64,000 nt of DNA from Patescibacteria group bacterium. GTDB taxonomy: Bacteria; Patescibacteriota; Patescibacteriia; UBA9934; GWF2-40-263. The stretch is from NCBI GenBank assembly GCA_004297215.1, contig SCUM01000001.1:78282-142281 (forward strand), in the 5' to 3' direction. Shown piece after piece: positions 2,815-63,129 of the stretch. The position numbers were made by a program, and so were the translations under genes. The first letter of the stretch is position 1. Every line of letters starts with the position of its first letter. The notes beneath the pieces were generated by a model. It saw only the letters and a list, made by a program, of their open reading frames with translations, made no database searches and was not told the DNA's origin.

Positions 2815-3854
2815 CACCGGTCATCATTTCTTGGATGCTGATCGCCCTGGCCGTGTCGTTTTTCGCGACGCGGCTGTTGGTTTTGATCGTGCCGAAGTGG
2901 GGGGTCGTGGACCGGCCGGACGGAGAACGCCGGACGCACGCGAAGGCCGTGCCGCTTTTGGGAGGCATAGCCGTGTTCGTCGCGGTCACCGTCTGCGTGG
3001 ATATCCTGCTCCTTTCGGGCGACCAGCTCACGGGCGGGCTCATCACGACGCGCCACTATGTCGGGTTCCTGATCGGCGGACTGATACTCATGGTCGGCGG
3101 CTATCTCGACGACAAGCACCGCCTGTCGCCGCGCCTGGCCGTGGTCGCCCCGATCATCGCCGCGCTCATCGCGATCGCTTCGGGAATCCAGGTCGAGAAA
3201 TTGACGAACCCTTTCGGAGGCGTGATCGAGCTCGCCCCCTGGCAATCGCACGTCCTCGTCTTCGCCTGGCTCATGGGGGCGATGTACACGACGAAGTTCC
3301 TGGACGGGCTCGACGGGCTCGCGACCTCGGTCTCGTCGGTCGGCGCGTTCATGGTGATGTCGCTCGCGCTCACGGTCGCGTACTTCCAGCCCGATGTCGC
3401 CTTGTTCGCCGCAATCGGGATCGGGGCGCTGGCCGGGTTCCTGTTTTGGAACGTCCCACCCGCCGCCATTTTCCTCGGCGAAGGGGGGAGCACGTTCGTC
3501 GGGTACCTCATCGGCACGCTCGCGGTGATTTCCGGGGGGAAGATCGCCACGGCCGCGCTCGTGCTCGGCATTCCCATCATGGACGTGGCGTGGGTGATCC
3601 TTCGTCGTTGGAAGTCTGGGGGAGTAAAAAACGTGTTCAAGGGCGATCGCAAGCACCTGCATCACCGCCTGCTCGCGCTCGGATGGACGAGCGGCCAGGT
3701 CGTCGCTGGCTATACGCTCGTTGCCGCTGCGTTCGGTTCGGCCGCGCTGTTCTTGCAGAGCCGCGAAAAGCTGCTTGCCATGCTCGCGCTGTTTGGACTC
3801 ATGCTCTTCCTGGCCGCCTTCCTGGTCGCGCGCGAACGCACGTCACATGATTAG
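2811..3854 (+). CDS. Glycosyltransferase family 4, WecA/MraY-family undecaprenyl-phosphate sugar-1-phosphate transferase
   Basis: Polytopic membrane protein with 10 or more TM segments and motifs LDGLDGLA, GDxGS-like FLGEGGSTFVG, and DRKHLHHRL. The GTG start overlaps the clp stop (GTGA). Confidence 0.8.
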
Positions 3855-4847: not shown

Positions 4848-4983
4848 TGTCATCCTGAACGGAGGCCCTCAGGCCGGAGTGAAGGACCCTGGTCTGGAGG
4901 CCGCCAGATATTTCATTTGGGAATGACCGTCTGGAGGTCGCTCGTCGTGGATCCTTCGTCAGCGGTCCAGACTCAGGATGACA
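4848..4983. repeat. About 136-nt MITE/REP-like element, copy A, with terminal inverted repeats TGTCATCCTGA...TCAGGATGACA
   Basis: About 80% identical to copy B at 49617-49751. Internally self-complementary (ctgaacggaggccctcagg... / ...ggatccttcgtcagcggtccagactcag). Lies between the rplU terminator and the convergent GIY-YIG gene. Confidence 0.7.
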
Positions 4984-4999
4984 ATGAAGGATGGGATTG

Positions 5000-5296: not shown

Positions 5297-5514
5297 AGAT
5301 GATCCTTCGTCGGCTGAGGCCTCCTCAGGACGACATGAGTGTCGCCTCCACGGCCCCTGGAACGTTTCCGTTCCTGCCCGGGGAACATACAAAACGACCC
5401 CCATCAAAGATGGTAGGTCGTTTTGTTGACACCCAGATTTGGAGGTTACCCTCGCTGGTTATTCATAATCTATCAGAAGTTTTGGTTTTCGTCAACGGTC
5501 TCCCTGTGGAAAAG

Positions 5515-7350: not shown

Positions 7351-7456
7351 AAGGGGGTAGTTGGTAGTGCGTAGTGCGTAGGGTTGAAGGGTAGCGTGGA
7401 AAATGTCTTTAGACAACAGTCGATGCTACCCCCTACCACCTACGTACTACCCCTTC
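7351..7456. repeat. Intergenic imperfect palindrome rich in GGTAG/CTACC motifs (ybaB-dnaB spacer)
   Basis: aagggggtagttggtagtgcgtagtgcgtagggttgaagggtag ... gctaccccctaccacctacgtactaccccttcag. The right arm is approximately the reverse complement of the left. It shares ctaccccctaccacctac with ligA (51393-51428). Confidence 0.6.
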
Positions 7457-24714: not shown

Positions 24715-25059
24715 ATGAAACTCATTTCCATCAAGGGGACGCAGATCGAGCTCACCGATGCCATCAAGGATTACGTCAACGTCAAGCTCGAGGCGATCGA
24801 GAAGTTCACCACGGATTTCGGGGAGGCCGCGCAGATCAGCATCGAGTGCGGACGCACGAGCGGGCATCACAACAAGGGGAACGTGTACCGTTGCGAGATG
24901 AACCTCCAGGTGCCCGGGAAGCTGTTGCGCGCCGAGCGCGAGGCCGAGGACCTGTACGAGGCGATCGACTTCGTGAAAGACGAGCTCATCCGCCAGATCA
25001 AGGACCACAAGGGGATCCTCGCCGATGCGCATCGGGGATCGCGGCCCGACAAGGCGTAG
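24715..25059 (+). CDS. hpf: Ribosome hibernation promoting factor / RaiA (S30AE family)
   Basis: MKLISIKGTQIELTDAIKDYVNVKLEAIEKF matches the HPF/YfiA N-terminus. Short form, 114 aa. Immediately upstream of secA. Confidence 0.85.
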   Translation: MKLISIKGTQIELTDAIKDYVNVKLEAIEKFTTDFGEAAQISIECGRTSGHHNKGNVYRCEMNLQVPGKLLRAEREAEDLYEAIDFVKDELIRQIKDHKGILADAHRGSRPDKA

Positions 25060-25132
25060 GCGTGACGGCGGGGGAGACCCCGCCGTTGATTTTTGCCCCG
25101 TTTTCGGGCACACTCTGGCGGAACTTGATGCT

Positions 25133-27814
<2,682 letters not shown>

Positions 27815-28716: not shown

Positions 28717-29259
28717 ATGTCTCGCGTCATCGTCGTCCATGGGTGGGGAGATTCGCCGGAAATCAACTGGATGCCTTGGTTGAAAGCTGAGCTCGAAAAA
28801 CGGAGCTTCAGCGTTCTTGTTCCCGAAATGCCTGACACCGAGCACCCGAATATCGACAAATGGGTCGGGAAACTTCGTGAGGTCGTCGGGGTATCCAGCG
28901 CGGACACGATCCTTGTTGGTCACAGCATCGGCTGTCAGACTATCATGCGGTATCTTGCGACATCCGACATGAAAGTCGGCCGCGTGGTTTTCGTGGCGCC
29001 ATGGTTCACATTGATAGGCCTTGAGGACGAGGAGGTGCTGGTGGCCAGGCCTTGGCTCAACACACCCATCGACTTCGAGGCGGTAAAGCGTTCGGCAGCG
29101 GAAATCGTTGCGATTTTTTCCGACGATGACCCCGTGGTGCCCATCGAGAACGAACGGATGTTCCATGAAAGCCTTGGCGCTCGAACGATTGTCGTACATG
29201 GCAAAGGACATTTCGACGACGCCGAAGCGCCCGAAGTCCTGGCCGAGATCGTTCGTTGA
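28717..29259 (+). CDS. Alpha/beta hydrolase, RBBP9/YdeN-like serine hydrolase (COG3545)
   Basis: VHGWGDSPEINWMPWL...ILVGHSIGC (GxSxG nucleophile)...DDPVVP...HGKGHF. Confidence 0.6.
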   Translation: MSRVIVVHGWGDSPEINWMPWLKAELEKRSFSVLVPEMPDTEHPNIDKWVGKLREVVGVSSADTILVGHSIGCQTIMRYLATSDMKVGRVVFVAPWFTLIGLEDEEVLVARPWLNTPIDFEAVKRSAAEIVAIFSDDDPVVPIENERMFHESLGARTIVVHGKGHFDDAEAPEVLAEIVR

Positions 29260-29268
29260 TTGTTGTGT

Positions 29269-29832
29269 ATGGACTGGCAAAAGGTCCTATCGGACTGGCA
29301 GCGGGAAGAGGAGGAAGCTTGGCGGCCGTTGTATACGGAGTGCGGGTTTGGATCGTGGCTCGAGTGGCGTAAGAGTTACATCGATGATCTGCAGCTCGAG
29401 CGACGGGTTTGGACGGAGACCGTCATAGAGAACCCGCACGATGTTGTCCCGGCTTACGCGATTGGCGGATACAAGGGATGGAAGCCGTACCGGCCGGCGG
29501 GGAAGGATGTCGCGACGTTTGCCGACGTGGCGGCGCCGGCGGCTCCGGGAGAGGTCGCCTTCGACGGAACGCCTCGCTTGGACGTACGGACCAACAGGAA
29601 AGTCGCTTCGCTCGTGGGAGCGCTCCATGATTTCCACATCATCGTGTTGCGTTGCGGGGATTTGAACGTCGTCCTCGAAGGGACGCACCGCTGTGCCGCG
29701 ACGGCGGTCGAAGCGGCCGACGGGAACCGATCGAGATTCAGGCTGACCGTCCGCACCGCCGCGTTTGACTCGAGCGAACGTGCGCTGCTCGAGGAGTTCT
29801 GTCGGGAGCGGGCCGCTGTCATTAAAAAATGA
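29269..29832 (+). CDS. Hypothetical protein
   Basis: ORF with coding-like GC3 bias and no recognisable domain. ATG at 29269; the ORF track begins at TTG 29260. Confidence 0.4.
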   Translation: MDWQKVLSDWQREEEEAWRPLYTECGFGSWLEWRKSYIDDLQLERRVWTETVIENPHDVVPAYAIGGYKGWKPYRPAGKDVATFADVAAPAAPGEVAFDGTPRLDVRTNRKVASLVGALHDFHIIVLRCGDLNVVLEGTHRCAATAVEAADGNRSRFRLTVRTAAFDSSERALLEEFCRERAAVIKK

Positions 29833-29883
29833 ACGTACGCTGCCCCTTGAATCGGACGGCGTTTCGTTGCAGAATGGAGCCCT

Positions 29884-30291
29884 ATGAAATCCGAGCATCT
29901 GATGGCGGACATCCCGTGCAAGGCGTTCGTCGAACGCGACGGGAAAATCCTGTTCGTCCAGGAAGCAGACGGTCCGTGGGCCCTGCCCGGAGGCCGCATC
30001 CATGTGGGCGAGATGCCGCGCGAGGCGTTGAAGAGGGAAATCCGGGAGGAGCTTGGCGTGGATATCGAGGTGGGCGATCCGTTCGACGTCACGGTGTTCA
30101 CGAGCAAGTCCGGGCTGGCGCATCTGGTGGTCGCGTTTCATGCGACAATCGCTGAGGGCCAGGAGCTCGTGGCGGACCCGAGTGAAGTCGCGGCCATCGA
30201 ATGGGTCGGGATCGAGGAGATTCTTACGAGGACCATGCACATCGGATCTCGCTCGATCATCGAACGGCTTGCGAAGCGGGGTACCCCTTGA
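29884..30291 (+). CDS. NUDIX hydrolase
   Basis: Nudix box GGRIHVGEMPREALKREIREELGV. RBS ggag. Confidence 0.8.
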   Translation: MKSEHLMADIPCKAFVERDGKILFVQEADGPWALPGGRIHVGEMPREALKREIREELGVDIEVGDPFDVTVFTSKSGLAHLVVAFHATIAEGQELVADPSEVAAIEWVGIEEILTRTMHIGSRSIIERLAKRGTP

Positions 30292-30332
30292 ACCTTCCGG
30301 CGATACGGGGCAGGATGGCAGTGGAGGTTGCC

Positions 30333-30644
30333 ATGAAGGAAATCCCGAAGCCGGGGACCGAACGGCTGAAGAAGGCGCTCATGGGGCACCCGGCCTTCAG
30401 CGATGTCGACCACGCGCGCCGGCCGGATTCGGTGGACGGGAGCGCATGGGAATGCGAAGCGAACGTGCTCGCGTTCTCCTACCGCGAGCGCCCGTACTTC
30501 GCCCATGTGGGCGACGAGGTCGTGCAGGTCACCCGCCCGGGCGGGTCCGGACGCGAGCGCATGGTCGGCCGGTTCGTCCGCACGGACGCGAGCGACCTCG
30601 CCCGCGCGCTCGCCGCGGCGATCGACGCGGCGGTGCACGAATGA
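30333..30644 (+). CDS. Hypothetical protein (103 aa)
   Basis: ATG preceded by GGAGG with a 5-nt spacer. GC3 bias present. No recognisable family. Confidence 0.4.
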   Translation: MKEIPKPGTERLKKALMGHPAFSDVDHARRPDSVDGSAWECEANVLAFSYRERPYFAHVGDEVVQVTRPGGSGRERMVGRFVRTDASDLARALAAAIDAAVHE

Positions 30645-30666
30645 ATCCATACGCAAGGAGGGACGC

Positions 30667-30960
30667 ATGCTGATCCTTGATTGTTCCGAGTGCCAGGCGA
30701 ACGCCTCCTGCGCGCTCGGGCAGAAGGCGCGCGCCGAGCCCTGTCCGGCGATCGAGCCGGGCCACTGCGGGCTCTCGATGCGGCACCAGTCGGTCGTTGC
30801 CAGGGAGCCGGGGCCGCAGATCTCCTTCGTGTGCGTGAAATGCGGCGCGCACGGGCTCGCCCGCACCACGCGCTCGCCCAGCGCCGAAAAGAAGGTCTCG
30901 TTCGCCGACCCGGTGCGCCCTACCGTCTCCGGCGGCGGGATCCCGGACACGCTCGAATGA
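30667..30960 (+). CDS. Cysteine-rich small protein (putative zinc ribbon)
   Basis: Strong RBS AAGGAGGG. CSECQANASC...CPAIEPGHC...CVKCGAHG. Confidence 0.45.
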   Translation: MLILDCSECQANASCALGQKARAEPCPAIEPGHCGLSMRHQSVVAREPGPQISFVCVKCGAHGLARTTRSPSAEKKVSFADPVRPTVSGGGIPDTLE

Positions 30961-31013
30961 CCTCGTACGCGCGCCTCGACCAGGGGCGCGTTTTTGTCTT
31001 ATGCTGTCCGGGT

Positions 31014-31217
31014 ATGACCGAACCGGGGAAGTACCGCCACTACAAGGGGAACGAGTACGAGGTAATCGGGCTCGCCAGGCATTCGGAAACGCTCGATAAT
31101 ATGGTCGTGTACCGTGCCTTGTACGGCTCCGGGGAGCTCTGGGTCCGCCCCAGGGCGATGTTTGAGGAGGAGGTCGAAGCGGGCGGCGTTCGCCAGCCGA
31201 GGTTCAAGCGGGTATGA
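31014..31217 (+). CDS. DUF1653-family small protein
   Basis: GKYRHYKGNEYEVIGLARHSETLDNMVVYRALYG. 67 aa. Confidence 0.6.
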   Translation: MTEPGKYRHYKGNEYEVIGLARHSETLDNMVVYRALYGSGELWVRPRAMFEEEVEAGGVRQPRFKRV

Positions 31218-31516
31218 GATACGACAAGCTGGTGCGCGACAAGATGCCGGAGCGCATCAGGGCGAAAGGGGAGGCATGCTCGTTTCATGTCGCGGACGAC
31301 GCGGAGTACTGGCAAAAGCTGAAGGCCAAGATGGCCGAGGAGATGGGCGAATTCGTGCGCGACGAGAGCGCGGACGAGGTGGCGGACATCCTGGAGGTGC
31401 TTGACGCCATCATCGCGTACAAGAAGTTCGACCGCGCCGAGATCGAGGCGATCAAGAAGCGAAAATTCGACGAGCGCGGCGGATTCGAGGGACGCATCAT
31501 CCTGGACGAGTCGTGA
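31214..31516 (+). CDS. MazG-like nucleotide pyrophosphohydrolase (phosphoribosyl-ATP pyrophosphohydrolase-like)
   Basis: MRYDKLVRDKMPERI...EEMGEFVRDESADEVADILEVLDAI...KKRKFDERGGF. ATGA overlap with the DUF1653 gene. Confidence 0.65.
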   Translation: MRYDKLVRDKMPERIRAKGEACSFHVADDAEYWQKLKAKMAEEMGEFVRDESADEVADILEVLDAIIAYKKFDRAEIEAIKKRKFDERGGFEGRIILDES

Positions 31517-31576
31517 GTTGACGGATCGTGCCAACGGCATCAAGCTGGCGGCACGTTCCTTTCATCGGGAGGCATC

Positions 31577-32197
31577 TTGGAACCGGATTACAAAGGACAG
31601 CTTTCGCTTCTCACGGGAGACGCGGATCCCACAGCGGCCATCCAGGCCGCCCGCACCGCGTTAGACAGGTTGTGCAAGGGATTCATGTCGTCCGAGTTGC
31701 GTGACGGGATGCTCCTGCGCGCGGCCGAGGAGGCCCGGCAGCAGCTCGTCGCGGTGCGTTCGGCCGGCGCGTATTGCGACCTGGCCGCGTTGATCGCCCC
31801 GTACGCGCGCCAGATCCTGGAGGTCGAGGAAGACCTGCATCTGCAGGAATACGTCGTCCTGCGCCTTCCCGCGGACCTGTTCGTGCAGGCCTTTCTCCAT
31901 GGCAAGGACGTGCGGGAAAAGTGGGAGCTCGCGTTCCTCATCGCGGGAGCGGAGCGCGTCCGAGACCTCATCAAGGACCTATGGGCCGCCGGCAACCTGG
32001 ATGACGCGGCGCTCCTGTACGCGTCGGCCTATTCGGAGGGACGTCGCGAGGACGCGCTCAGTAATTCGCGCGAAACGGCCTGCGACGATGTCCCGAAAGA
32101 CTTCCTCCGCGCGCTCATGGGTTACGACCGATGGCCGGATCCCAAGGCGGTAGCGGGCATCGACGAGTGGATCGCCGAGGAGATTGATCCGAAGTGA
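31577..32197 (+). CDS. Hypothetical protein (206 aa)
   Basis: TTG start with GGGAGG 5 nt upstream. Preceded by the duplicated leader module. No recognisable domain. Confidence 0.4.
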   Translation: MEPDYKGQLSLLTGDADPTAAIQAARTALDRLCKGFMSSELRDGMLLRAAEEARQQLVAVRSAGAYCDLAALIAPYARQILEVEEDLHLQEYVVLRLPADLFVQAFLHGKDVREKWELAFLIAGAERVRDLIKDLWAAGNLDDAALLYASAYSEGRREDALSNSRETACDDVPKDFLRALMGYDRWPDPKAVAGIDEWIAEEIDPK

Positions 32198-32420
32198 GGA
32201 TGATGGCGGACGACGCGACGGGGTGGCAGCGCCCCGTTTTTTAATCTTCCAGGAAACCCCGGGTGAGGGCATCAGCCAGAAACCTGGGGATGAATGGTGC
32301 CTTGCTCGAGATCGAAGCGGGCGGCGTTCGCCAGCCGAGGTTCAGGCGCCTATCATGAGTTGACAAGATGCGCCGCCGGCCACAAGCTGGCGGCGCGTTC
32401 TCTTTCCGAAGGGAGACCCA

Positions 32421-33728
32421 ATGCCAAGCGAGAAGAAGGCCGCGCTCGCTCGGCGGCGGGCCGAGGATCGGGCGGCGCTCGAAAGAGGCGACCATGTCGC
32501 GTTCGACAAGGAAGACATGCCGCGGCTGCCGGCATCCGTGACGCGTTCCTTGGAGGAACATGCGTTCGTGCTCGTGCCGGCGGAGGACGGCGCGGCGCAG
32601 GAGGCCGTGAGGGAGTTCTTTCGCCGATACGGTCCGGCGCTCGACGACCTGGAGGACTGTCCGGCCGTGAACCGGCTGTGCGGGCTCTTCCAGCTCGGGA
32701 TCAAGCGCGACCCGTCGCAGGACGCGGTGCTGCTGCAGCCCGGGAAGGCGGCCGCGCGCGTGAAGACGGCGCCGTTCGTCCATGACCGCCTGACGCACTC
32801 GAAGCAGGTGGCCGCGCACATGGTGGCGCTCGGCTGCACGCTTGGGGAACCGCCGGATCGGCTCGTGGACGCCGCGCTGGGCTCGCTCCTGCATGACACC
32901 GGCCACTGCGCGTTCAGCCATGACGGCGACCAGCTGCTGGTCGCGCGCGGCCGGCCCGACCACGAGATGCGCGGACAGCGGCTCGTCCTCGACGACCCGG
33001 ACATCCGTGAATCGCTCGCGCTCGCCGGGGCAAGACCGGACGCGGTGGTGGCCGTGATGCGGGAACAGGGCCGATACGGGCAGATGCAGAAGCTGATGGA
33101 TACGCTGGCCTACGTGACGCTCGACGCGGAAATGGCCGGCGCGCCGCTCCCGGAGGGGTTCGGCAGCGCCGTGCTCCGCTCCATTTGCGGCGTGGACGAA
33201 CACGGGTTCGCGGTGCGCCATCCGCTGGCGCTCATGGACGTGCTGACGTTTCGCGCCAGGCTTTCCAAGGCGATCTACTACGCCTGGTACAACCGCGTGG
33301 CCGTGGCCATGCTGCAGAAGGTCCTCGGGACGCTGCTCGACGCCGGACGGCTCCCGCTCGAGCGGCTTGAGCGGGGAAGCGACCAGGAGATCGAAATGCG
33401 GACGACGCTCGCCTTGGGCAGTTCCGGCGCATCGGAGGAGGCGTGGCTGCAGAGCGCCAACGCGGTGAGCTACGGGTTCTGGGAGGAGTTCGAACGGCAT
33501 TGGGAACGGCTCGAGTTCGCGGACGGGGACGCGGCCGCAGGGTGGCTCTCCGGCCTCAGCCCCTCCCGCGCGGCCTCCGGCGTCCTGTGCCCGCCGTACG
33601 ATTACACGAAGAAGGCGTTCCTAGCACGCACGAGCCTTGCGGTCGAGCCTCGGCGCCTGCAGGCCTCACCGGACATCATGGATTCGATCGACCGCCAGTG
33701 GATCGCCTGCGCATACAAGCAAGGCTGA
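32421..33728 (+). CDS. HD-domain phosphohydrolase (dGTP triphosphohydrolase-like)
   Basis: HSKQVAAHMVALG...LLHDTGHCAFSHDGD is an HD motif. 435 aa. RBS gggag. Preceded by the second copy of the leader module. Confidence 0.7.
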   Translation: MPSEKKAALARRRAEDRAALERGDHVAFDKEDMPRLPASVTRSLEEHAFVLVPAEDGAAQEAVREFFRRYGPALDDLEDCPAVNRLCGLFQLGIKRDPSQDAVLLQPGKAAARVKTAPFVHDRLTHSKQVAAHMVALGCTLGEPPDRLVDAALGSLLHDTGHCAFSHDGDQLLVARGRPDHEMRGQRLVLDDPDIRESLALAGARPDAVVAVMREQGRYGQMQKLMDTLAYVTLDAEMAGAPLPEGFGSAVLRSICGVDEHGFAVRHPLALMDVLTFRARLSKAIYYAWYNRVAVAMLQKVLGTLLDAGRLPLERLERGSDQEIEMRTTLALGSSGASEEAWLQSANAVSYGFWEEFERHWERLEFADGDAAAGWLSGLSPSRAASGVLCPPYDYTKKAFLARTSLAVEPRRLQASPDIMDSIDRQWIACAYKQG

Positions 33729-33856
33729 CTCGCCCCCGACGCGCCGTCGGGGGATTTTTGTCCTGTATCAGGCTGTGTTACGGTATTTCCTGAAGGGCAT
33801 CGGAGTTGACAAAACAGCCGTTTTCCGCTATGCTCCAGCGTTATTCTGAAGAATCT

Positions 33857-34960
33857 ATGATTAACAAAAACCTCCGTATTTCCGCGGTTGCCACGATGAT
33901 CGGCTTGTCCGGGTCCCTTGGGACCTTTGCGAGCGCCTCCGGGGTAAGCGTTCACACGAACGAGCGCAACCTCGCGCCGAGCGTCTCGTCCTGGTCGCGC
34001 AGCAATGGCGCGGACGTGAACGGCGACGGCACGATCCGCCTGCAGGATCGCGATGACGCTTCGGCTTCGACCGACGTCGCCGTGTCGAGTTCGCGCTCGG
34101 GCGATTACGCCTTGCTCGTGTCCTTCACGCGCGCCACCGGTTCCGGCCGCAATTCAGACTCCATCGCGGGCAAGCCGTATCTCTACGGCTACCTGATGGA
34201 CGGTCGCGACATCCTGGAGTACCTGCAGGACGATTCCATGACCCACCGCGAAGGCGGCGACTGGGGCGTGAGCTACGGCGTGTTCCGCATCCCGAGCGGA
34301 ACGGACAACATCCGGTATTTCCTGAACCAGGGTTCCCGCCGCGGCACGAGCGATGCCGGCCGTGAAGCGTGGTTCTATCGTCCGGGGCTGTTCATCACCG
34401 ACAGCCGTTCCGATGCCATGGACATCGTTGACGCGTATGAGCGTCGCCTGGACGACGTCGAGGACGCGCTCGACGGCCGTTCGTCCAACGACGACCGTTA
34501 CGACAACCCCAATTATGGCAACGGGAATTGTCCCAACGGGTATTGCGATGATGGTCTCACCGGCCCGCCCGTGTATTCCACCGGAACGCTCCTCAAGTGC
34601 CCGGGTCGCGCGGCCGTGTTCTCGGTCACGGGACGCCGCAGCATCCGCCTGTTTCCCAACGAGGACACGTTCTACGCCTGGGGGTACTCGTTCCAGGACG
34701 TCCGGACGATTTCCTGCGCCACGCTCGACCGCTTCGACATGGACGGGAGCTGGACGTACAGCCGCGACAGCCGGCTCATCAAGTTCACCGATTCCCCGGC
34801 CGTGTACACGCTCGACAACGGGCGCTACCTGCGCGGGATTCCCAACGAGCATACGGCCCGCGCCATGTACGGCTCCGACTGGGCCTCGCGCATCCGCCTG
34901 CTCTCGCCGTACGAGCGGTACAACTACGTGATTTCCCATCAGCATCCGAACCGCTACTAA
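33857..34960 (+). CDS. Secreted hypothetical protein
   Basis: Signal peptide MINKNLRISAVATMIGLSGSLGTFASA. Gly/Asp/Asn-rich middle (NPNYGNGNCPNGYCDDG). No recognisable family. Confidence 0.55.
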   Translation: MINKNLRISAVATMIGLSGSLGTFASASGVSVHTNERNLAPSVSSWSRSNGADVNGDGTIRLQDRDDASASTDVAVSSSRSGDYALLVSFTRATGSGRNSDSIAGKPYLYGYLMDGRDILEYLQDDSMTHREGGDWGVSYGVFRIPSGTDNIRYFLNQGSRRGTSDAGREAWFYRPGLFITDSRSDAMDIVDAYERRLDDVEDALDGRSSNDDRYDNPNYGNGNCPNGYCDDGLTGPPVYSTGTLLKCPGRAAVFSVTGRRSIRLFPNEDTFYAWGYSFQDVRTISCATLDRFDMDGSWTYSRDSRLIKFTDSPAVYTLDNGRYLRGIPNEHTARAMYGSDWASRIRLLSPYERYNYVISHQHPNRY

Positions 34961-34963
34961 GAC

Positions 34964-34997
34964 AAACCGCCTCGGGCCTCGGCCTGGGGCGGTTTTT
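34964..34997 (+). terminator. Rho-independent terminator
   Basis: aaaccgcctcgggcc-tcggcctggggcggttttt. Confidence 0.7.
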
Positions 34998-35002
34998 CGT
35001 TC

Positions 35003-35039
35003 GGGTCACTAAGTGACCTCCCTGGTCACTTAGTGACCC
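35003..35039. promoter_or_regulatory. Operator-like double palindrome upstream of rdgB
   Basis: GGGTCACTAAGTGACC-tccct-GGTCACTTAGTGACCC. Two copies of a 13-bp self-complementary site GTCAC-TWA-GTGAC. Confidence 0.5.
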
Positions 35040-35060
35040 GGCGGCTATACTTCTCGCGAT

Positions 35061-35618
35061 ATGGCACGCATTACCCTCGTCACCGGCAATCCGGACAAGA
35101 AGAAGGAGTTCGAGAACGCGCTTTCCGGCACGGACATCGTCATCGCCGATCATCACCTCCACGAAATCCAGTCGCTCAATCTTCGGGAGATCGTCGAGCA
35201 TAAGGTCCGCGGCGCCTATGGATGCGTGAAGGGTCCGGTGATTGTCGAGGACGTAAGTTTCGAGGTCGCGGCCATGAACGGCTTTCCTGGTCCGTTCGTG
35301 AAGTACTGGGCGAACTTGGTGGGCTACGAGAAGGCGCTCATCCTCTGTGAAGCCGAAAAAAACTGGGCTGCCCGGGCCGTTTGTGCCGATGCCTATTTTG
35401 ACGGGAAGCAGCTTGTCTACGTAGAGGAAGCGGTGCCGGGCAGGCTCACCTCGCGTGCGGGCGATGACGGCTTCGGATTCGATTTCTTCTTTATTCCAGA
35501 CGGCTATGACCAGACATTCGCCCAGCTCGGACGAACCGTGAAGAACAAGATTTCCCACCGTGCCCGCTCGCTGCAGGCGCTACGCGTCGCGCTGGCAGAG
35601 AAGGGAATCCTCGCCTGA
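35061..35618 (+). CDS. rdgB: Non-canonical purine NTP pyrophosphatase (RdgB/HAM1, dITP/XTP pyrophosphatase)
   Basis: ITLVTGNPDKKKEF...IVEDVSFEVAAMNGFPGPF...FGFDFFFIP...KNKISHR. Confidence 0.85.
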   Translation: MARITLVTGNPDKKKEFENALSGTDIVIADHHLHEIQSLNLREIVEHKVRGAYGCVKGPVIVEDVSFEVAAMNGFPGPFVKYWANLVGYEKALILCEAEKNWAARAVCADAYFDGKQLVYVEEAVPGRLTSRAGDDGFGFDFFFIPDGYDQTFAQLGRTVKNKISHRARSLQALRVALAEKGILA

Positions 35619-35620
35619 CG

Positions 35621-35741
35621 GTCCAACACCCGGTGTTGGGCCACCGAGTTTCCTAAGAATTTAGGCACTTTAGAAAATCACCCTCACAAAAATCCTAGGA
35701 ATTTCAAGCAAATCTACTTTTCCAACACCGGGTGTTGGACT
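35621..35741. repeat. Inverted hairpin pair flanking an AT-rich ~80-nt core
   Basis: gtCCAACACCCGGTGTTGGgc ... AT-rich core with internal palindromes cctaagaatttagg / cctaggaatttc ... tCCAACACCGGGTGTTGGac. The two termini are reverse complements of one another. Confidence 0.6.
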
Positions 35742-35743
35742 CT

Positions 35744-36097
35744 ATGGCATTTTTCCCCCGCGAAGGCTACCGATTTCTCCTCTTGCACGTCATCCTCACG
35801 GCCTCGGCGTATTTCCTGCTGCTCCGTTTCGTCCCGCAGCTCGGACGATTCGTGTGGCTCGCGGCGCCCAGCGCATCAGGGTTCGTCATCACCATGCTCG
35901 ATAAATTATCGGCGCAGGTACGCGTCCGTCGTATCCCGGAAACGGCGCTCCATGCGATCGCGCTTCTGGGCGGGTCGCTCGGCGTGTTCGCGGGGATGCA
36001 GCTCATGCGCCACAAGACGCGCAAGGTGTCGTTCCAATTCACGCTCACGGCGGTGTTCCTCATCCAGCTCGCCATCCTGTACTTCCTCATGAAATGA
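35744..36097 (+). CDS. DUF1294-family membrane protein
   Basis: IPETALHAIALLGGSLGVFAGMQLMRHKTRKVSF is a DUF1294 signature. Confidence 0.6.
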   Translation: MAFFPREGYRFLLLHVILTASAYFLLLRFVPQLGRFVWLAAPSASGFVITMLDKLSAQVRVRRIPETALHAIALLGGSLGVFAGMQLMRHKTRKVSFQFTLTAVFLIQLAILYFLMK

Positions 36098-36128
36098 AAA
36101 GGCCCGCAGGGAAGCGGGCCAGGATCGG

Positions 36129-36374
36129 TCATTGGCTGACCGGGACGCGTTGCGCCCACGCGTGTTCGCTCACCTCTCCCATGAGGGCGAGCGGCGGGTA
36201 GACGAACAGCACGGCGTTGCACGTTTCGCAGTAGTGGAACCCGACGGAGCAGGCGAACGGCGCCCCGGCCGTGAAGAAGTCCAGTCCGATCTTGCGGCCG
36301 GCGCACCATCGGCATGTCCTGGGCGCTCCGGCCTCGTCGTTGTGGAATTCGAGCGCTTCCTCGATCCGCCGCAT
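36129..36374 (-). CDS. Small zinc-ribbon-like hypothetical protein (81 aa)
   Basis: High GC3 in this frame. TCRWCAGRK...CSVGFHYCETCN are four Cys in two CxxC-like pairs. Start is uncertain. Confidence 0.4.
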   Translation of the reverse strand: MRRIEEALEFHNDEAGAPRTCRWCAGRKIGLDFFTAGAPFACSVGFHYCETCNAVLFVYPPLALMGEVSEHAWAQRVPVSQ

Positions 36375-36604
36375 CCGGAGCGACGGGAGCACGCGTTGCG
36401 GCTCGACCTGGCTCAGGTCGCGCGTTGGTTTCAGTTGCTTCTTCTTGCTGCGTCGGCTCACGCACGCTCCTCGAGTGGGGGAAAGGTCATGGGCGCCCCA
36501 TTGTGTCCGCGGATCCGGGAAGTTGTCAAAGGGATACGCCGTCTTGCGTCTCCTTGCCGTTTCCCCTACACTCCCGTCGTCTAAACGGAGCTCCGGCATC
36601 CCCT

Positions 36605-38683
36605 ATGCAGACCTGGAAAATCAAGCGCAACCATGGCGCTCAGCGCCCCGCCTCGCGCGGCGGTCATCCGCGCGTCGCCACCGCGCTTTTGCTCATCCTC
36701 ACCCTGGCGGGCGCGACATACGATTTTCCCGCGCTCTGGAACGGCTCCGCGTCGTTCGTAGAGGGGAAGACCGGCTGGAGCCTCCCGTCGCTCCCGGAGG
36801 ATCCGTACCGCCTGGGGCTCGACCTGCAGGGCGGCACCCATCTCGTGTACGAGGCGGACATGGCGGAGATCCCCGCCGGCGACCAGGACACGGCCCTCGA
36901 AGGGGTGCGCGACGTGATCGAGCGGCGGGTGAACGCGTTCGGCGTTGCCGAGCCCGTGGTGCAGACGATCACCGCCGGCGGCATCCACCGCCTCATCGTG
37001 GAGCTCGCCGGCGTGCTCGACGTGAACGCGGCGATTGAGCAGATCGGCGAGACGCCGGTGCTCGAGTTCAAGGAGCCGGCCACCGACGTCGGCCGCGAAC
37101 TCACCGCCGAGGAAAAAGCCGCGCTCGCGGCGCTGAATGCGCAGGAGCGCGCGGCGGCCGAGGCCCTGCTCTCGCGCGCCCGCGCGGGCGCGGCGTTCGA
37201 CGCCCTGGTCGCGGAGGCTTCCGTCGAGCCGGGCGCGGATGAGACGAAGGGCGTCTTGGGCGGGGCCGTGGCGGATTCCGCGCGCTACGGCGAGATCGTG
37301 AAGGCGATCCAGCGCAGCGGGGTGCGAGCGGGCGGCATCGTCCCGAAGGTGATCGAGACCCCGGAAGGGTTGAGCGTGGTGAAGTATCTCGGCCAGAAGC
37401 AGGACCGGGAGATGCAGCTGTCCCACATCTTGTTCTGCTTTGAAGGGAAGACCGGCTGCGTGAAGGACGTCCCCGCGCTCGACGCCTCGGTGCGCATGAC
37501 CGCGCTCAGGAAGGATCTCACGGCGGAGAATTTCGCTGAGAAGGCCACGGAACTTTCCGACGACCCGAGCGCGGCGCAAAACGGCGGCGACTTGGGCTGG
37601 GTGAAGCCGGGCGACACCGTGCTGGCGTTCGAACTCGCCGCGCGGCAGGTCGAGAAGGGGAAGATCTCCGAAGCCGTGGAGACCGATTTCGGCTACCACC
37701 TCATCTACAAGCGCGACGAGCGGGCGATCGCCACCTATCAGGTCCAGCGCGTGCTGCTGAAGCTCTCGAAGGACGCCGACGTGGTGCCCGACGCGAGCCC
37801 GTGGAAGAACACCGGGCTTTCCGGCAAGCACCTCGAGCGCGCGAACGTCGCCTTCGATCCTACCTCCGGCGCGCCGCACATCAGCCTGCAGTTCAACTCG
37901 GAGGGGGCCGAGCTGTTCGGCACGCTCACGCAGGCGCATGTGGGCGAGCCCATCGCCATCTTCCTCGACGGCGAGGCCATCTCCGTGCCCACGGTGCAGC
38001 AGGCGATTTATGGAGGCCAGGCCGTCATCAGCGGCACGTTCACGCTCCCCGAGGCCAAGCTTCTCGCCCAGCGCCTCAATGCCGGCGCCTTGCCCGTGCC
38101 CGTGAAGCTGCTGTCGCAGGAAACGGTCGGGCCCTCCCTCGGCGCCGCCTCGCTCGCGGCGAGCGTGAACGCCGCCCTGATCGGTTTCGCGCTGGTCGCC
38201 GCGTTCATGATCCTCGTGTACCGACTGCCGGGGCTGCTCGCGGGCGTGGCGCTCGTCCTCTACGCCGTGCTCAACCTCGCGGCCTACAAGCTGTTCGGCG
38301 TCACCGTCACCCTTTCGGGCATCGCCGGGTTCGTGCTGTCCCTGGGCATCGCCGTGGACGCCAACGTGCTCATCTTCGAGCGCATGCGCGACGAGTGGCG
38401 CGCGGGCCGCGACCTGTCGTCGTCGATCTCCGAAGGGTACCGCCGCGCCTGGGCGCCGATCCGGGACGGGCACCTCACCACGCTCATCTCCGCGCTCGTG
38501 CTGTATTTCTTCAGCTCCAGTTTCGTGAAGGGGTTCGCCCTCACGCTGGGCATCGGGGTGGCGCTGTCGCTGTTCACGGCGCTCACGGTGACCCACGCGT
38601 ATCTCGGCGCGGCCCGCTCCGCCAGGTTCCTTACGGCCCCGTGGCTCTACAGCCTTAAGCGTCCGACGACGGACCCCAAGTGA
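36605..38683 (+). CDS. secD: Protein translocase subunit SecD with an inserted parvulin-type (PpiC) peptidyl-prolyl isomerase domain
   Basis: The SecD N-terminus and C-terminal TM bundle (AVDANVLIFERMRDE) are typical. Between them, residues ~250-480 carry GGDLGWVKPGDTVLAFELAARQVEKGKISEAVETDFGYHLIYKR, a rotamase/PpiC signature. Confidence 0.9.
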   Translation: MQTWKIKRNHGAQRPASRGGHPRVATALLLILTLAGATYDFPALWNGSASFVEGKTGWSLPSLPEDPYRLGLDLQGGTHLVYEADMAEIPAGDQDTALEGVRDVIERRVNAFGVAEPVVQTITAGGIHRLIVELAGVLDVNAAIEQIGETPVLEFKEPATDVGRELTAEEKAALAALNAQERAAAEALLSRARAGAAFDALVAEASVEPGADETKGVLGGAVADSARYGEIVKAIQRSGVRAGGIVPKVIETPEGLSVVKYLGQKQDREMQLSHILFCFEGKTGCVKDVPALDASVRMTALRKDLTAENFAEKATELSDDPSAAQNGGDLGWVKPGDTVLAFELAARQVEKGKISEAVETDFGYHLIYKRDERAIATYQVQRVLLKLSKDADVVPDASPWKNTGLSGKHLERANVAFDPTSGAPHISLQFNSEGAELFGTLTQAHVGEPIAIFLDGEAISVPTVQQAIYGGQAVISGTFTLPEAKLLAQRLNAGALPVPVKLLSQETVGPSLGAASLAASVNAALIGFALVAAFMILVYRLPGLLAGVALVLYAVLNLAAYKLFGVTVTLSGIAGFVLSLGIAVDANVLIFERMRDEWRAGRDLSSSISEGYRRAWAPIRDGHLTTLISALVLYFFSSSFVKGFALTLGIGVALSLFTALTVTHAYLGAARSARFLTAPWLYSLKRPTTDPK

Positions 38684-38684
38684 T

Positions 38685-39590
38685 ATGGCCTTCAGCTTCA
38701 TCCGTCCGCGCCGCCTCTGGTTCGCCATTTCGGCCGTGCTGATCGGCGCCTCGCTCATGGCCCTCGGCCTGTTCGGGCTCAAGTTCGGCACCGACTTCAC
38801 GGGGGGGACGCTGCTCGAGCTCCGGTTCGCGTCGGGGCGCCCGGAAAACGCCGAACTCGCGGGCCTGTTCGCGAACGCCGGATTCCAAGGCGCCACGGTG
38901 CAACCCGCCGGGGAAGACCGCGCCCTCGTGCGTCTCCCTCCGCTCACCGAAGAGGAGCACCAGACGGCCCTCGCCGCCGTGAAGGCCGCGCACGAAGGCG
39001 CATCCGAGCTCCGGTTCAACTCCGTCGGACCGGTGATCGGCAAGGAGCTGCGCACCACGGCCGTGCTGGGCGTCGCCATCACGCTCCTGCTGATCGGACT
39101 CTACATCGCCTACGTGTTCCGCACGGTGAGCGACCCGGTGCCCAGCTGGAAGTATGCCGTGGTCACGCTCATCGCCGCCGCGCACGACGTGATCATCCCG
39201 CTCGGCCTGTTCGCCGTGCTCGGTCATTTCCGGGATTGGGAAGTGAACGCGGGATTCGTGGCCGCCGCGCTCACCATCCTCGGGTATTCCATCTCCGACA
39301 CCGTGGTGGTGTTCGACCGCGTGCGCGAGAACCTGTCGCGGGATTCCTCCGACGCGTTCGAGGACATCGTGGACCGTTCCGTGCAACAGACCGCCGTGCG
39401 CTCGTTCAACACCTCGTTCACGGCGCTCCTCGCCCTCGCCGCCATCCTCGCGTTCGGCGGCGACACCACCCGCCCGTTCGCCGCCGCCCTGTTCGCCGGC
39501 ATCGCGACCGGCACGTATTCGTCCATCTTCATCGCGAGCCCGCTGCTCGTGGAGTGGGAGAAGAGGAACAGGAAGGGATCGGGAGGGTGA
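38685..39590 (+). CDS. secF: Protein translocase subunit SecF
   Basis: GLKFGTDFTGGTLLEL...IIPLGLFAVLG...TVVVFDRVRENL. Starts 1 nt after the secD stop. Confidence 0.9.
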   Translation: MAFSFIRPRRLWFAISAVLIGASLMALGLFGLKFGTDFTGGTLLELRFASGRPENAELAGLFANAGFQGATVQPAGEDRALVRLPPLTEEEHQTALAAVKAAHEGASELRFNSVGPVIGKELRTTAVLGVAITLLLIGLYIAYVFRTVSDPVPSWKYAVVTLIAAAHDVIIPLGLFAVLGHFRDWEVNAGFVAAALTILGYSISDTVVVFDRVRENLSRDSSDAFEDIVDRSVQQTAVRSFNTSFTALLALAAILAFGGDTTRPFAAALFAGIATGTYSSIFIASPLLVEWEKRNRKGSGG

Positions 39591-48550: not shown

Positions 48551-49627
48551 ATGCCCGGCCCAAAGCCCAAAGTCCTGCTCGGCATGTCCGGCGGCGTGGA
48601 TTCGTCCGTGGCCGCGGCTTTGCTGCTGGAGCAGGGATATGAGGTGATCGGGGCGTTCATGAGGAACTGGAGCGACTGCGCCTGGAGGGCGGACAGGCGC
48701 GACGCGAACCGCGTCGCGGCCCAGCTTGGCATCCCGTTCCTCACGCTCGACTTCGAAAAGGAGTATCGGGAAAAGGTCATCGACGAGATGTTCCGCGAGT
48801 TTGCCGCCGGTCGCACGCCGAACCCGGACGTGCTGTGCAACAGGCATGTGAAGTTCGACCTGTTCGCGCGCGAGGCCGATCGCCTCGGATGCGACTTCGT
48901 CGCGACCGGGCATTATGCGCGGGTCCAGCACGGCACAGACCCCACCCATGCCCTCTCCTTGGCAAGGGGAGGGGTAGCTCGCCTGATGCGTCCTGCGGAC
49001 ACCGAAAAGGATCAGACCTATTTCCTTTGGGCCATCGAACCGAAGGTGCTGCCGAGGGTGCTGTTCCCGCTTGCGGGGCTCACGAAGCCCGAGGTCCGGG
49101 CGAAGGCGAAGGCGCTTCAGCTGCCGGTCGCGGACAAACCGGATAGCGTTGGGATCTGTTTTGTGGGGGAAGTGGACATGAAACAATTCCTTGCTCAACG
49201 CATCCCGCATGTCCGTGGAAGGATCGTCACGACCGACGGGCGGGACGTCGGCACGCACGACGGGTTGCCGTTCTACACGATCGGCCAGCGCGAAGGGTTG
49301 GGCGTTTCGGCGAGCGAGCCGTATTACGTGGTCGAGAAGCGGATGGCCACGAACGAGCTCGTCGTCGGCAGCGCCTTCGACCCGGGGTTGTTCAAGAAAA
49401 CCGTGTCCGCGAATCAGGCGAACTGGTTCCGTCGCCCGCAGGCAGGGGACCGGGTAGGCGCGCGCATCCGGCACCGCGGGCCGATCGCGCCGTGCACGGT
49501 GGACGCGGTCGGCGACGCGACCGTATCCATCACGTTCGACGAGCCGCAGCGGGCCGTCACTCCGGGGCAATCCATCGTCTTTTACGACGGCGACGAGGTG
49601 CTCGGGGGAGGCGTTTTGTCATCCTGA
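48551..49627 (+). CDS. mnmA: tRNA-specific 2-thiouridylase MnmA
   Basis: PP-loop MSGGVDSSVAAALL...GHYARV. The stop codon lies inside the terminal inverted repeat of repeat copy B. Confidence 0.9.
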   Translation: MPGPKPKVLLGMSGGVDSSVAAALLLEQGYEVIGAFMRNWSDCAWRADRRDANRVAAQLGIPFLTLDFEKEYREKVIDEMFREFAAGRTPNPDVLCNRHVKFDLFAREADRLGCDFVATGHYARVQHGTDPTHALSLARGGVARLMRPADTEKDQTYFLWAIEPKVLPRVLFPLAGLTKPEVRAKAKALQLPVADKPDSVGICFVGEVDMKQFLAQRIPHVRGRIVTTDGRDVGTHDGLPFYTIGQREGLGVSASEPYYVVEKRMATNELVVGSAFDPGLFKKTVSANQANWFRRPQAGDRVGARIRHRGPIAPCTVDAVGDATVSITFDEPQRAVTPGQSIVFYDGDEVLGGGVLSS

Positions 49628-49751
49628 ACGAAGGCCTTCAGGCCGCAGTGAAGGAACCTCGTCTGGAGTCCATCAGACGTTTGTCCTGGGATGATCGTCT
49701 GGAGGTATCCCAACGAGGATCCTTCGTCAGCCGTTCAGTCTCAGGATGACA
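49617..49751. repeat. About 135-nt MITE/REP-like element, copy B (TIR TTGTCATCCTGA...TCAGGATGACAA)
   Basis: About 80% identity to copy A (4848-4983). Sits exactly between convergent mnmA and a FecR-like gene, and both genes end in ...LSS* encoded by TTGTCATCCTGA. Confidence 0.7.
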
Positions 49752-50391
49752 ATAAATGGAAGAATTTGGCGTAAAACGCGGCGCCGGCGCTCGTGTTCGC
49801 GTCGAACGCGAATCCCTCCACGGACAGGCCCGGTCGCTCCGTGACGCGTTGCGCCCCGACGGCGACGATGGCGCTGTCGTCAACGAACAGGATCGGGAGC
49901 GGCGCGTCGAAGGGAATGATTTCCACCACATGGCGGAAACTATAGTTGATGACCGACATGGAGGCGCCGCTTGGAAGCTGCGTGTCGGTCGCCTCGGTGG
50001 TGACGGAGAGGATGGGCGAGGAGGGGTCGGACGCGGCCGCGAGGCGGCCTTGCACGAGTCGGACGACCGGGTGCGACGCAGAGAGGTCGGCCATGAGCAG
50101 GTCCGTGCGCTCGTCGAGCCCCAGCCGCACCCCCGCGACCGACAGCTCCGCGTAGCCGCCGGCTCCGATGAGGACGATCTCGCCGCGCCGCAGGCGCTCC
50201 CCGACGGTCGCCGGGCGCGTCTTGCCCGCCGCGTCCACGACCACCTCGCCGTCCGCGACGAGGACGACCGCTTCCACGGCAGGTCCACGGTCCGCTCCCG
50301 CCCACGGGGAGCCGAATCTCTGGCCGACAAGCAGGGTCGCCACCAGGATCGCGAACAGCAGTGGAGGGAGATGCCGCTTCATGCCTGGCAT
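49741..50391 (-). CDS. Secreted FecR-like domain protein
   Basis: Signal peptide MKRHLPPLLFAILVATLLVG. VLVADGEVVVDAAGKTRPATVGERLRRGEIVLIGAGGYAELSVAGVRLGLDERTDL. Paralogous flavour to 44645. Start alternative at 50382. Confidence 0.55.
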   Translation of the reverse strand: MPGMKRHLPPLLFAILVATLLVGQRFGSPWAGADRGPAVEAVVLVADGEVVVDAAGKTRPATVGERLRRGEIVLIGAGGYAELSVAGVRLGLDERTDLLMADLSASHPVVRLVQGRLAAASDPSSPILSVTTEATDTQLPSGASMSVINYSFRHVVEIIPFDAPLPILFVDDSAIVAVGAQRVTERPGLSVEGFAFDANTSAGAAFYAKFFHLLSS

Positions 50392-50689: not shown

Positions 50690-52918
<2,229 letters not shown>

Positions 52919-54850: not shown

Positions 54851-54942
54851 TGTCTTTGCGAGGAGCGTGCCGTCCAGGCGACGAAGCAATCTCCCATCTC
54901 GCGTGAGGTTGCTTCGTCGGCTGAGGCCTCCTCGCAAAGACA
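54851..54942. repeat. Structured inverted-repeat element between gatA and lgt
   Basis: tgtctttgcgaggag ... ctcctcgcaaagaca are the outer arms. The inner arms are cgacgaagcaa / ttgcttcgtcg. Shares cttcgtcggctgaggcctcct with 5305-5326. Confidence 0.6.
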
Positions 54943-59624: not shown

Positions 59625-60905
<1,281 letters not shown>

Positions 60906-62157: not shown

Positions 62158-63129
62158 GTGTCCATGGTGAATAGGAAGCGGCCGTCGCATGACGACGGCA
62201 CCGGCGCGCTTTACCGGGAGATCTTGCGCCTGCCGCTGCTCACGCGGCAGCAGGAGCAGGCGCTCGGCGCGGCCGTGACCCTGCGGCGAAAGGCGCTCGC
62301 GTACGCGGCCGCGCTCGCGGACCCGAATTCCGTGCAGGAGCCGGAGGCGCGCGCGCGGCTCGTCGAGGAGGCACGGGGCGTTCCGGTCGAGCGGTGGATG
62401 CGCGAGGGCGACCGGGCCGTGCGCGTGCTGACGGAACGCAACGTCCGTCTGGTCTTCTCCATGGCGCGCCGAGCCCTGCGGTTGCCGGGCGTGGAGGTGG
62501 TGGACCTGGTGCAGGAGGGGATGCTCGGCCTCATCCGCGCGGCCGAGCGTTTCGACCCCGACATGGGGACGAGGTTCTCCACCTATGCCGTATGGTGGAT
62601 CCGCCAGGCGATGCAGCGCGGCTGCGGGTCCGTGGATGGCGCCGCCACGCTGCCGCCGAACGTGCAGCAGCGGTACGTGACCTACGCGCAGGCGCACGCG
62701 TACCTCACGCGCCGGCTCAAGAGGCGCGTGTCCGTGGAGGAGACGTGCGCCTGGCTGGGCTGGAACGCCAAGGTCGGGCATGACCTGCTCGTCCACGTGC
62801 GCAGGGCGGTCCCGCTCGAGGCCCAGGACGTCCTCGAGGACGGCGCCTCGCGCGAGATCGTGGGCGACGACGCCCCCGGTCCGGAGGACCTTGCCGGGTT
62901 CCTCCAGGCCCGCATGCGCTTGCGCTGCATGCTCGCGCAGCTCAAGCCAAGGGAACGCGACATCCTCGAGCGCCGCTTCGCGCTCGACGGCGGGGAACCC
63001 GAATCCCTTCAGTCCATCGCCGACGACTGGGGGCTTTCCCGAGAGCGCATCCGCCAGATCGAGGAAAAGCTCGTGCGGCGGCTGCGCGACGTGCAGGAGA
63101 CCGCCGAGATCCGCTTCACGCGGCCGTGA
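62158..63129 (+). CDS. Sigma-70 family alternative sigma factor (group 3-like)
   Basis: Region 2 (FSTYAVWWIRQAMQRG), region 4.2 ([28 protein letters not shown]). 323 aa. Confidence 0.8.
   Translation: MSMVNRKRPSHDDGTGALYREILRLPLLTRQQEQALGAAVTLRRKALAYAAALADPNSVQEPEARARLVEEARGVPVERWMREGDRAVRVLTERNVRLVFSMARRALRLPGVEVVDLVQEGMLGLIRAAERFDPDMGTRFSTYAVWWIRQAMQRGCGSVDGAATLPPNVQQRYVTYAQAHAYLTRRLKRRVSVEETCAWLGWNAKVGHDLLVHVRRAVPLEAQDVLEDGASREIVGDDAPGPEDLAGFLQARMRLRCMLAQLKPRERDILERRFALDGGEPESLQSIADDWGLSRERIRQIEEKLVRRLRDVQETAEIRFTRP

Follow-up and report, generated by a model that had tools for sequence, protein, structure and literature searches.

The window analysed here, that is, the whole stretch of 64,000 nucleotides, has a G+C content of 65% and belongs to a Patescibacteria chromosome. 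The region of interest sits between secA (25025-27814) and secDF (36314-39590), in an interval that carries small-hydrolase genes encoding Ser_hydrolase, NUDIX, DUF1653, a 100-aa ORF, an HD protein and Ham1. The genes of the neighbourhood are chromosomal in kind (secA, secDF, murC-like and hpf), and no mobility gene was found among the ORFs scanned around the junction.

All features described below lie on the + strand. An intact DUF1653 gene (31014-31217, 67 aa; Pfam PF07866, E=2.6e-29) ends in repeat A, the last 46 nt of the gene (31170-31215), which contains an exact 33-mer at 31174-31206. The DUF1653 stop codon is overlapped by the ATG of a 100-aa ORF (ATGA), and this ORF (31214-31516, with a coding-type GC3 of 0.87), named MazG-like in the initial annotation, lies exactly between repeat A and repeat B (31511-31564). 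Its stop codon TGA (31514-31516) is the TGA within TGAGTTGAC; TTGACG follows at 31518-31523, and folding places a hairpin with an internal mismatch at 31527-31555, succeeded by the tract TTCCTTTC. Gene X (31577-32197; 206 aa, locus tag EPO34_00530, coding-type composition) starts with TTG at 31577, has its own Shine-Dalgarno (SD) sequence GGGAGG at 31567-31572, and is closed by a canonical intrinsic terminator with a 9-bp stem and T6 (32217-32244, terminator scan). A short remnant ORF runs from ATG 32290 to TGA 32358 (32290-32358; 22 codons and a stop, translated as MNGALLEIEAGGVRQPRFRRLS) and includes repeat A', the 3' remnant of a DUF1653 gene (32308-32353, with the exact 33-mer at 32312-32344). 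The promoter scan places a promoter-like TCGCCA-17-TATCAT (9/12 matches) across the joint of A' with repeat B', at 32328-32356. Repeat B' (32353-32406) holds TGA at 32356-32358, TTGACA at 32360-32365 and, by folding, a hairpin of 14 bp with loop CACAA at 32367-32399, followed by the tract CTCTTTC. The HD-domain gene (32421-33728, 435 aa; Pfam HD, E=7.4e-6) has its ATG at 32421 and its SD sequence GGGAG at 32411-32415, and an intrinsic terminator listed by the terminator scan lies behind it (33733-33753).

Repeats A and A' agree over 46 nt at 91% identity, with an exactly identical tract of 33 nt (31174-31206 = 32312-32344). The initial annotation had reported that the tail of the DUF1653 gene recurs downstream, and this was borne out, since the 31-mer that it quoted occurs exactly twice in the window and never in 100 shuffled sequences; its length of 36 nt (32312-32347) has to be corrected, as 31 nt were quoted and the exact tract measures 33 nt. 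Likewise, the remnant ORF that it described exists, with 22 codons plus a stop. A similar leader does follow each tail and ends at the two starts that had been named, TTG 31577 and ATG 32421, and in copy 1 the ORF at 31214-31516 separates tail and leader with exact A and B boundaries. The leaders B (31511-31558) and B' (32353-32400) are 75% identical over 48 nt without gaps, and nhmmer with B alone retrieved B' in the 64-kb window at E=3.4e-4. The best different locus in that search reached E=2.7, and a match at E=0.23 was the palindromic reverse strand of B itself.

In copy 2, A' directly abuts B', whereas in copy 1 the 100-codon ORF stands between A and B. When 296 nt (31216-31511) are removed, copy 1 becomes colinear with copy 2 over 99 nt, of which 79 are identical in the ungapped alignment (about 84% with two 1-nt gaps). 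The pairwise alignment that had been proposed as a check gave homology beyond the 36-nt stretch. The two copies lie in direct orientation about 1.1 kb apart, are placed alike with respect to the next gene, and bracket a segment of 1,138 bp (31207-32344). The duplicated junction, as the initial annotation called it, is therefore real and non-random: its copies are homologous, are colinear once the intervening ORF is taken out, and occupy the same place before a gene start. The indel between A and B coincides almost exactly with the 100-codon ORF, for which a random deletion or a simple insertion is a poor explanation.

The homology ends sharply. Beyond the left end of the repeat, the alignment score was reached by 49 of 500 shuffles, and beyond the right end by 160 of 500, neither being significant; homology into the 5' part of the DUF1653 gene or its promoter was absent (549 of 1000 shuffles). 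The GGGAG common to both copies is in each case the SD sequence of the downstream gene itself. An nhmmer profile found no third copy in the 64-kb window, where the next match scored no better than about E=0.7. The stretch 29704-29749 resembles A weakly (63% identity, nhmmer E=0.7) and, as a third "copy", was put down to chance; a dispersed REP- or MITE-like repeat was rejected, as the same profile found only two copies in the 64-kb window. Two scans of the IMG/VR viral collection gave zero matches. A codon-degenerate pattern of the DUF1653 tail (A) alone found no genuine copy in the JGI metagenomes; its sole match there, locus L128, lies in an unrelated transposase-type region and was attributed to chance. 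The genome collection was scanned with the pattern GTTGACN{17,19}CAAGCTGGCGGC, which was too permissive: at least 120 single matches were obtained, taxonomically scattered and judged to be chance. Among the matches listed, a single one showed any additional feature in the flanks, and the source genome itself was absent. The idea of a shared cis-regulatory element found no support in the sense of a dispersed motif, with no third copy in 64 kb and none in IMG/VR.

The proteins around the junction are of unequal familiarity. The label MazG-like for the 100-aa ORF found no match in Pfam, NCBIfam, PHROGs or PDB sequence searches, nor did a two-sequence profile of the ORF match anything in PDB, and the single-sequence AF2 model (five helices) had a pLDDT of 50.6, too low for a fold search. 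The ORF may resemble COG4997-type proteins, and at locus L127 a DUF1653/NUDIX/HD cluster holds a 100-aa ORF with 61% identity to it. Gene X is a rare, near-orphan gene: a word search retrieved only itself, and four remote homologues of 33-41% identity were found among 1.84 billion representatives. The possibility that X is a diverged HD paralogue was rejected, as BLASTP of X against the HD protein found nothing. A word search found no homologue of the HD protein, which is weakly dNTP-triphosphohydrolase-like, with weak NCBIfam dGTPase matches far below the cutoff. The closest relatives of the DUF1653 protein share 70-78% amino-acid identity, and none of them resembles A at the DNA level. The gene that comes next varies among relatives: L123 has an unrelated gene of 157 aa there, which shares the ATGA overlap, and L127 has a NUDIX gene, with the 100-aa homologue located a few genes further off. 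The C-terminal tails of DUF1653 proteins vary in length from 3 to 9 or more residues, so the tails do not show which copy is ancestral.

Both B and B' present the same order of elements, namely a stop codon, TTGAC(G/A), a GC-rich hairpin and a pyrimidine tract, with the SD sequence and start of the next gene about 10 nt beyond the tract. The hairpins fold at the same place in both copies, with the stop codon about 10 nt upstream and the SD sequence downstream. The hairpin of copy 2 has 14 bp and a folding energy of -33.1 kcal/mol for a 68-nt stretch (z -4.35), and that of copy 1, which has an internal 2x2 mismatch, has -24.8 kcal/mol (z -2.38). Between the copies, one pair has changed in a compensatory way (T-A to C-G), and in copy 1 two pairs are disrupted. 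This comparison of only two sequences suggests that the structure may have been conserved. The conserved RNA leader proposed at first is supported in part. No Rfam family matched, either locally (E<=1) or window-wide at the gathering threshold.

The hairpin resembles an intrinsic terminator or an intercistronic stabiliser in its GC-rich stem-loop, in the stop codon about 10 nt upstream and in the pyrimidine-rich tract that follows. The clear terminators here carry clean T5-T6 runs (30969-30991, 32217-32244 and 33733-33753), whereas the U tract of B and B' is broken by C (UUCCUUUC and CUCUUUC, respectively), although the stem is strong, especially in copy 2. The terminator scan lists 30969, 32217 and 33733, and does not list B or B'. 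Because its tail is interrupted by C, B may be at best a leaky or weak terminator, and in copy 1 its role might be that of an intercistronic hairpin, or of a leaky terminator, separating X from the DUF1653 and MazG-like genes.

As for initiation, the TTGACA-type -35 of the initial annotation is present as a hexamer, but the partner expected of it is poor: the hexamer 17 nt downstream of the TTGAC box is CAAGCT, with 2/6 matches to a -10, and the promoter scan did not flag it. The scan passed over TTGAC/CAAGCT and instead flagged TCGCCA-17-TATCAT, whose TATCAT -10 box arises from the A'/B' joint; a clear promoter for contrast is TTGACA-17-TATGCT at 33806. The gap between the X terminator and the HD gene (32245-32420) is 176 nt long, 113 of which are counted as A' plus B'. 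Given the strong terminator behind X, transcription of the HD gene requires a promoter in this gap. The A'/B' stretch now probably supplies the promoter or the 5' UTR of the HD gene, and TCGCCA-17-TATCAT would be the best candidate promoter as judged from its sequence; an HD mRNA made from it would carry the hairpin at its 5' end.

Considering these results, we regard it as fairly probable that the duplicated junction is an ordinary recombination or duplication scar in a Patescibacteria chromosome. The mismatches between the copies are uneven, 4 of 46 positions in A against 16 of 53 in B (Fisher p=0.011), and random placement of the 20 mismatches would leave an exact run of 33 nt with a probability of about 0.002. 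The four differences between A and A' amount to V>I, K>R, one synonymous change and V>L, all synonymous or conservative, and the frame of A' ends in PRFRRLS and a stop, where PRFRRL fits the family pattern PRFx[RK][LVI]. Because the differences are conservative and the tail fits the pattern, it is suggested that A' diverged inside a working DUF1653 gene. Recombination or gene conversion has probably acted in the 33-bp identical tract, to judge from the distribution of the mismatches. Such a tract has the size needed for homologous recombination, and a single crossover of the Campbell type leaves direct repeats of the shared segment flanking the inserted DNA.

A plausible model for the origin of the present order can be proposed. 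The locus would consist of two diverged homologous junctions in direct orientation, each made up of a DUF1653 3' end, a stop codon, a GC-rich hairpin and a pyrimidine tract, and the bracketed 1,138-bp segment would comprise the 100-aa ORF, hairpin B, gene X, the X terminator and a 67-nt spacer. The simplest event would be a homologous Campbell-type single crossover within the 33-bp tract. One partner would be a chromosome with the order DUF1653-B'-HD, which we take as ancestral, and the other a related genome or a paralogous copy with the order (DUF1653 tail)-MazG-like-B-X-terminator; a single crossover between the two would give exactly the order seen. In a close variant, a second DUF1653-led module would once have stood in tandem and later lost its 5' part. 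In either variant, A' would be the dead 3' relic of a DUF1653 gene that once worked, while B and B' would be homologous intergenic hairpins inherited with the DUF1653 end, not copies of a dispersed motif. An inserted gene is expected to be near-orphan and to bring its own SD sequence and canonical terminator, and gene X in this respect supports the scar. The colinearity of the copies, the sharp ends of the homology and the restriction to two copies (in the window, IMG/VR and the JGI metagenomes) were counted in its favour, as was the varying gene after DUF1653 among relatives. Counted against it were the finding of no close relative of the source genome in the collections searched and the near-exact coincidence of the A-B indel with the 100-codon ORF. 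The likeness to Campbell-type integration lies in the direct repeats on both sides of the insert and in a crossover within a perfectly identical tract; the differences are that the donor here is hypothetical and that the homology covers no more than some 100 nt, with an ORF breaking it in copy 1.

If a recombination scar is the right reading, the locus would be a clean, small example of a streamlined Patescibacteria genome gaining or reshuffling a near-orphan gene, and this gain would have taken place inside a cluster of nucleotide-sanitising hydrolases. A dead gene fragment and a hairpin may then have come to provide expression signals for the gene that follows. The general picture is unchanged by the finding, which would become more telling only with further copies or excision products that reveal such junctions as general gene-shuffling sites in CPR bacteria.

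It is possible, if rather doubtful, that B and B' form a conserved regulatory cassette, that is, a composite promoter/terminator kept upstream of X and HD by selection and composed of stop, -35 TTGACA, spacer stem-loop, weak -10, SD sequence and start. Such a cassette may recur elsewhere in the genome and may be a recombination hot spot in the style of the promoter-early stem-loop (PeSL) cassettes of T4-type phages (Arbiol et al., 2010, PMC2839356; Comeau et al., 2014, PMC4122927). The commonest PeSL class consists of an upstream stop, a -35, a stem-loop in the promoter spacer, an SD sequence and a start (PMC2839356), and the order of elements here is the same as in that class (PMC2839356). 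Further points in favour of selection are that TGAGTTGAC and CAAGCTGGCGGCRCGTTC stand at an identical 18-nt spacing in both copies, that CAAGCT retains A at position 2 and T at position 6, that GAGTTGACAA is present too in the clear promoter at 33806, and that one stem change is compensatory. However, the -10 has only 2/6 matches and went unflagged by the promoter scan, two stem pairs are broken in copy 1, no Rfam family matches, and no copies occur in the viral or metagenome collections scanned. The existence of just two copies in the window is explained by a duplication that copied 46 nt of coding sequence as well.

A local tandem duplication of DUF1653(tail)-MazG-like-B, with deletion of the second MazG-like copy and decay in situ, appears unlikely to us. 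Gene X would then have been acquired separately or be a diverged gene. Direct orientation and close spacing agree with such a history, and a 296-nt deletion with 1-nt microhomology would describe the joint of copy 2, but a chance deletion of almost exactly one ORF is improbable and X has no similarity to HD. The conservative differences and the uneven identity between the copies fit divergence under selection, followed by recombination, better than they fit such decay.

More speculatively, the junctions may be a PeSL-like portable recombination and expression module in a CPR bacterium, exchange between which would move single genes (the MazG-like ORF and X) in and out of the nucleotide house-cleaning cluster; we consider this quite unlikely. 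If true, the 1,138-bp unit could excise as a mini-circle or be a presence/absence polymorphism. 

PeSL cassettes are the closest architectural analogue of the junction, and recombination mediated by PeSL inserts, deletes and circularises ORFan genes in the way suggested for this locus. The junction does not belong among them on three counts, namely the consensus promoter, the copy number in the window and the phage context. Both are short intergenic composites that arrange their elements alike, with a stable stem-loop lying between an upstream stop and a downstream SD sequence and start, and the copies here flank a near-orphan gene that recombination between them would excise or insert. In contrast, the -35 TTGACA/TTGACG is accompanied here by CAAGCT at 16-18 nt and not by a consensus -10, two copies are found in the 64-kb window as against dozens in PeSL, and the AT-rich upstream region is missing, while the repeat includes 46 nt of coding sequence. 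Furthermore, the setting is a bacterial Patescibacteria chromosome and not a phage hyperplastic region, with no viral matches. Promoter and terminator activity and mini-circles have been demonstrated for PeSL and are putative for B and B'.

We hold it very unlikely that the repeats are attL and attR of a small decayed integrative element at the DUF1653 3' end that carried a replacement gene end. The resemblance is that an intact gene end and a displaced 3' remnant form direct repeats with a 33-bp identical core, which bound 1.1 kb; the insert, at only 1.1 kb, contains no integrase, and no integrase or mobility gene was found between the repeats or among the neighbouring ORFs scanned. Moreover, a simple att core neither includes nor explains the second block of homology, B/B', which in copy 1 is non-contiguous with it. 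DGRs are common in Patescibacteria, and the repetition of a gene 3' end in nearby non-coding DNA recalls a TR/VR pair. This candidate was rejected, as the mismatches are G/A, A/G and GG/CC, adenine-specific in neither direction. The repeat here is also short, its target is not a known DGR target type, and no reverse transcriptase occurs among the annotated neighbours.

The assembly at this point was compared with independent Logan contigs from the same run (SRR8426588), which match the window exactly at 31177-32340 and 32315-38371 and end exactly at the 33-mer. Since the independent assembly breaks exactly at the 33-mer, the repeat is not the artefact of one assembler, and since its contigs match the window exactly, the pieces and the joint of the spacer to A' are real. 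Assemblies with k=31 break here because of the 33-bp repeat. The k=31 graph also permits the order DUF1653-B'-HD together with a 1,138-bp circle or tandem unit, and the linear order comes solely from the deposited contig (842 kb). An assembly artefact or a strain chimera joined at the shared 33-mer would account for the ambiguity of the repeat in the k=31 graph and the contig ends there, but it is highly improbable, because the joint of the spacer to A' (32307/32308) falls within a single, exactly matching Logan contig, the two 33-mers have different flanks and can be resolved by ordinary reads, and the deposited contig is 842 kb long.

As for the remnant ORF at 32290-32358, a longer 31-aa version with a GTG start (32263-32358) had no Pfam match. 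The remnant ORF has no convincing SD sequence and is probably not a gene, and in annotation this 22-codon ORF should not be called one.

The nearest syntenic relative is in a Patescibacteria MAG (GCA_964360375.1; locus L123, positions 3001-3674), where a Ser_hydrolase gene also lies upstream. The DUF1653 gene ends there in the same ATGA stop/start overlap as in the window, but the overlapping ORF encodes 157 aa and is unrelated. This suggests that the site directly 3' of DUF1653 is a recurrent gene-replacement position.

In the window, the DUF1653 gene appears nearly leaderless (30969-31016), with its ATG placed 8 nt past a candidate -10 box (TATGCT) recognized by eye. This box belongs to a TCGACC-18-TATGCT arrangement, also noted by eye immediately 3' of the upstream terminator; with 8/12 matches, it was not flagged by the promoter scan.

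Small hydrolase genes of the nucleotide "house-cleaning" type form a series (28717-35618) located between secA and secDF, comprising Ser_hydrolase, NUDIX, DUF1653, the 100-aa MazG-like ORF, an HD/dNTPase-like protein and Ham1/ITPase. A comparable cluster with DUF1653, NUDIX, HD and a 100-aa ORF is present on L127, an unrelated metagenome contig.

Several other repeats were found in the window. A dispersed repeat of ~140 nt is present on the forward strand at 4848-4985 and 49617-49753 (81-86% identical), with related fragments at 5298-5335 and 54905-54942. Inverted repeats are present at its termini (TGTCATCCTGA...TCAGGATGACA), it matched no Rfam family at the gathering threshold, and it resembles MITE-like or palindromic elements of intergenic DNA. 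Two neighboring genes share stretches of similar DNA (60276-60385 vs 62503-62612 and 60820-60851 vs 63038-63069; 72-91% identity) and are probably tandem paralogues ~2.2 kb apart. The short CTACCCCCTACCACCTAC motif (family D14) occurs at two far-apart sites, 7426-7451 and 51398-51437, in tandem at the second.
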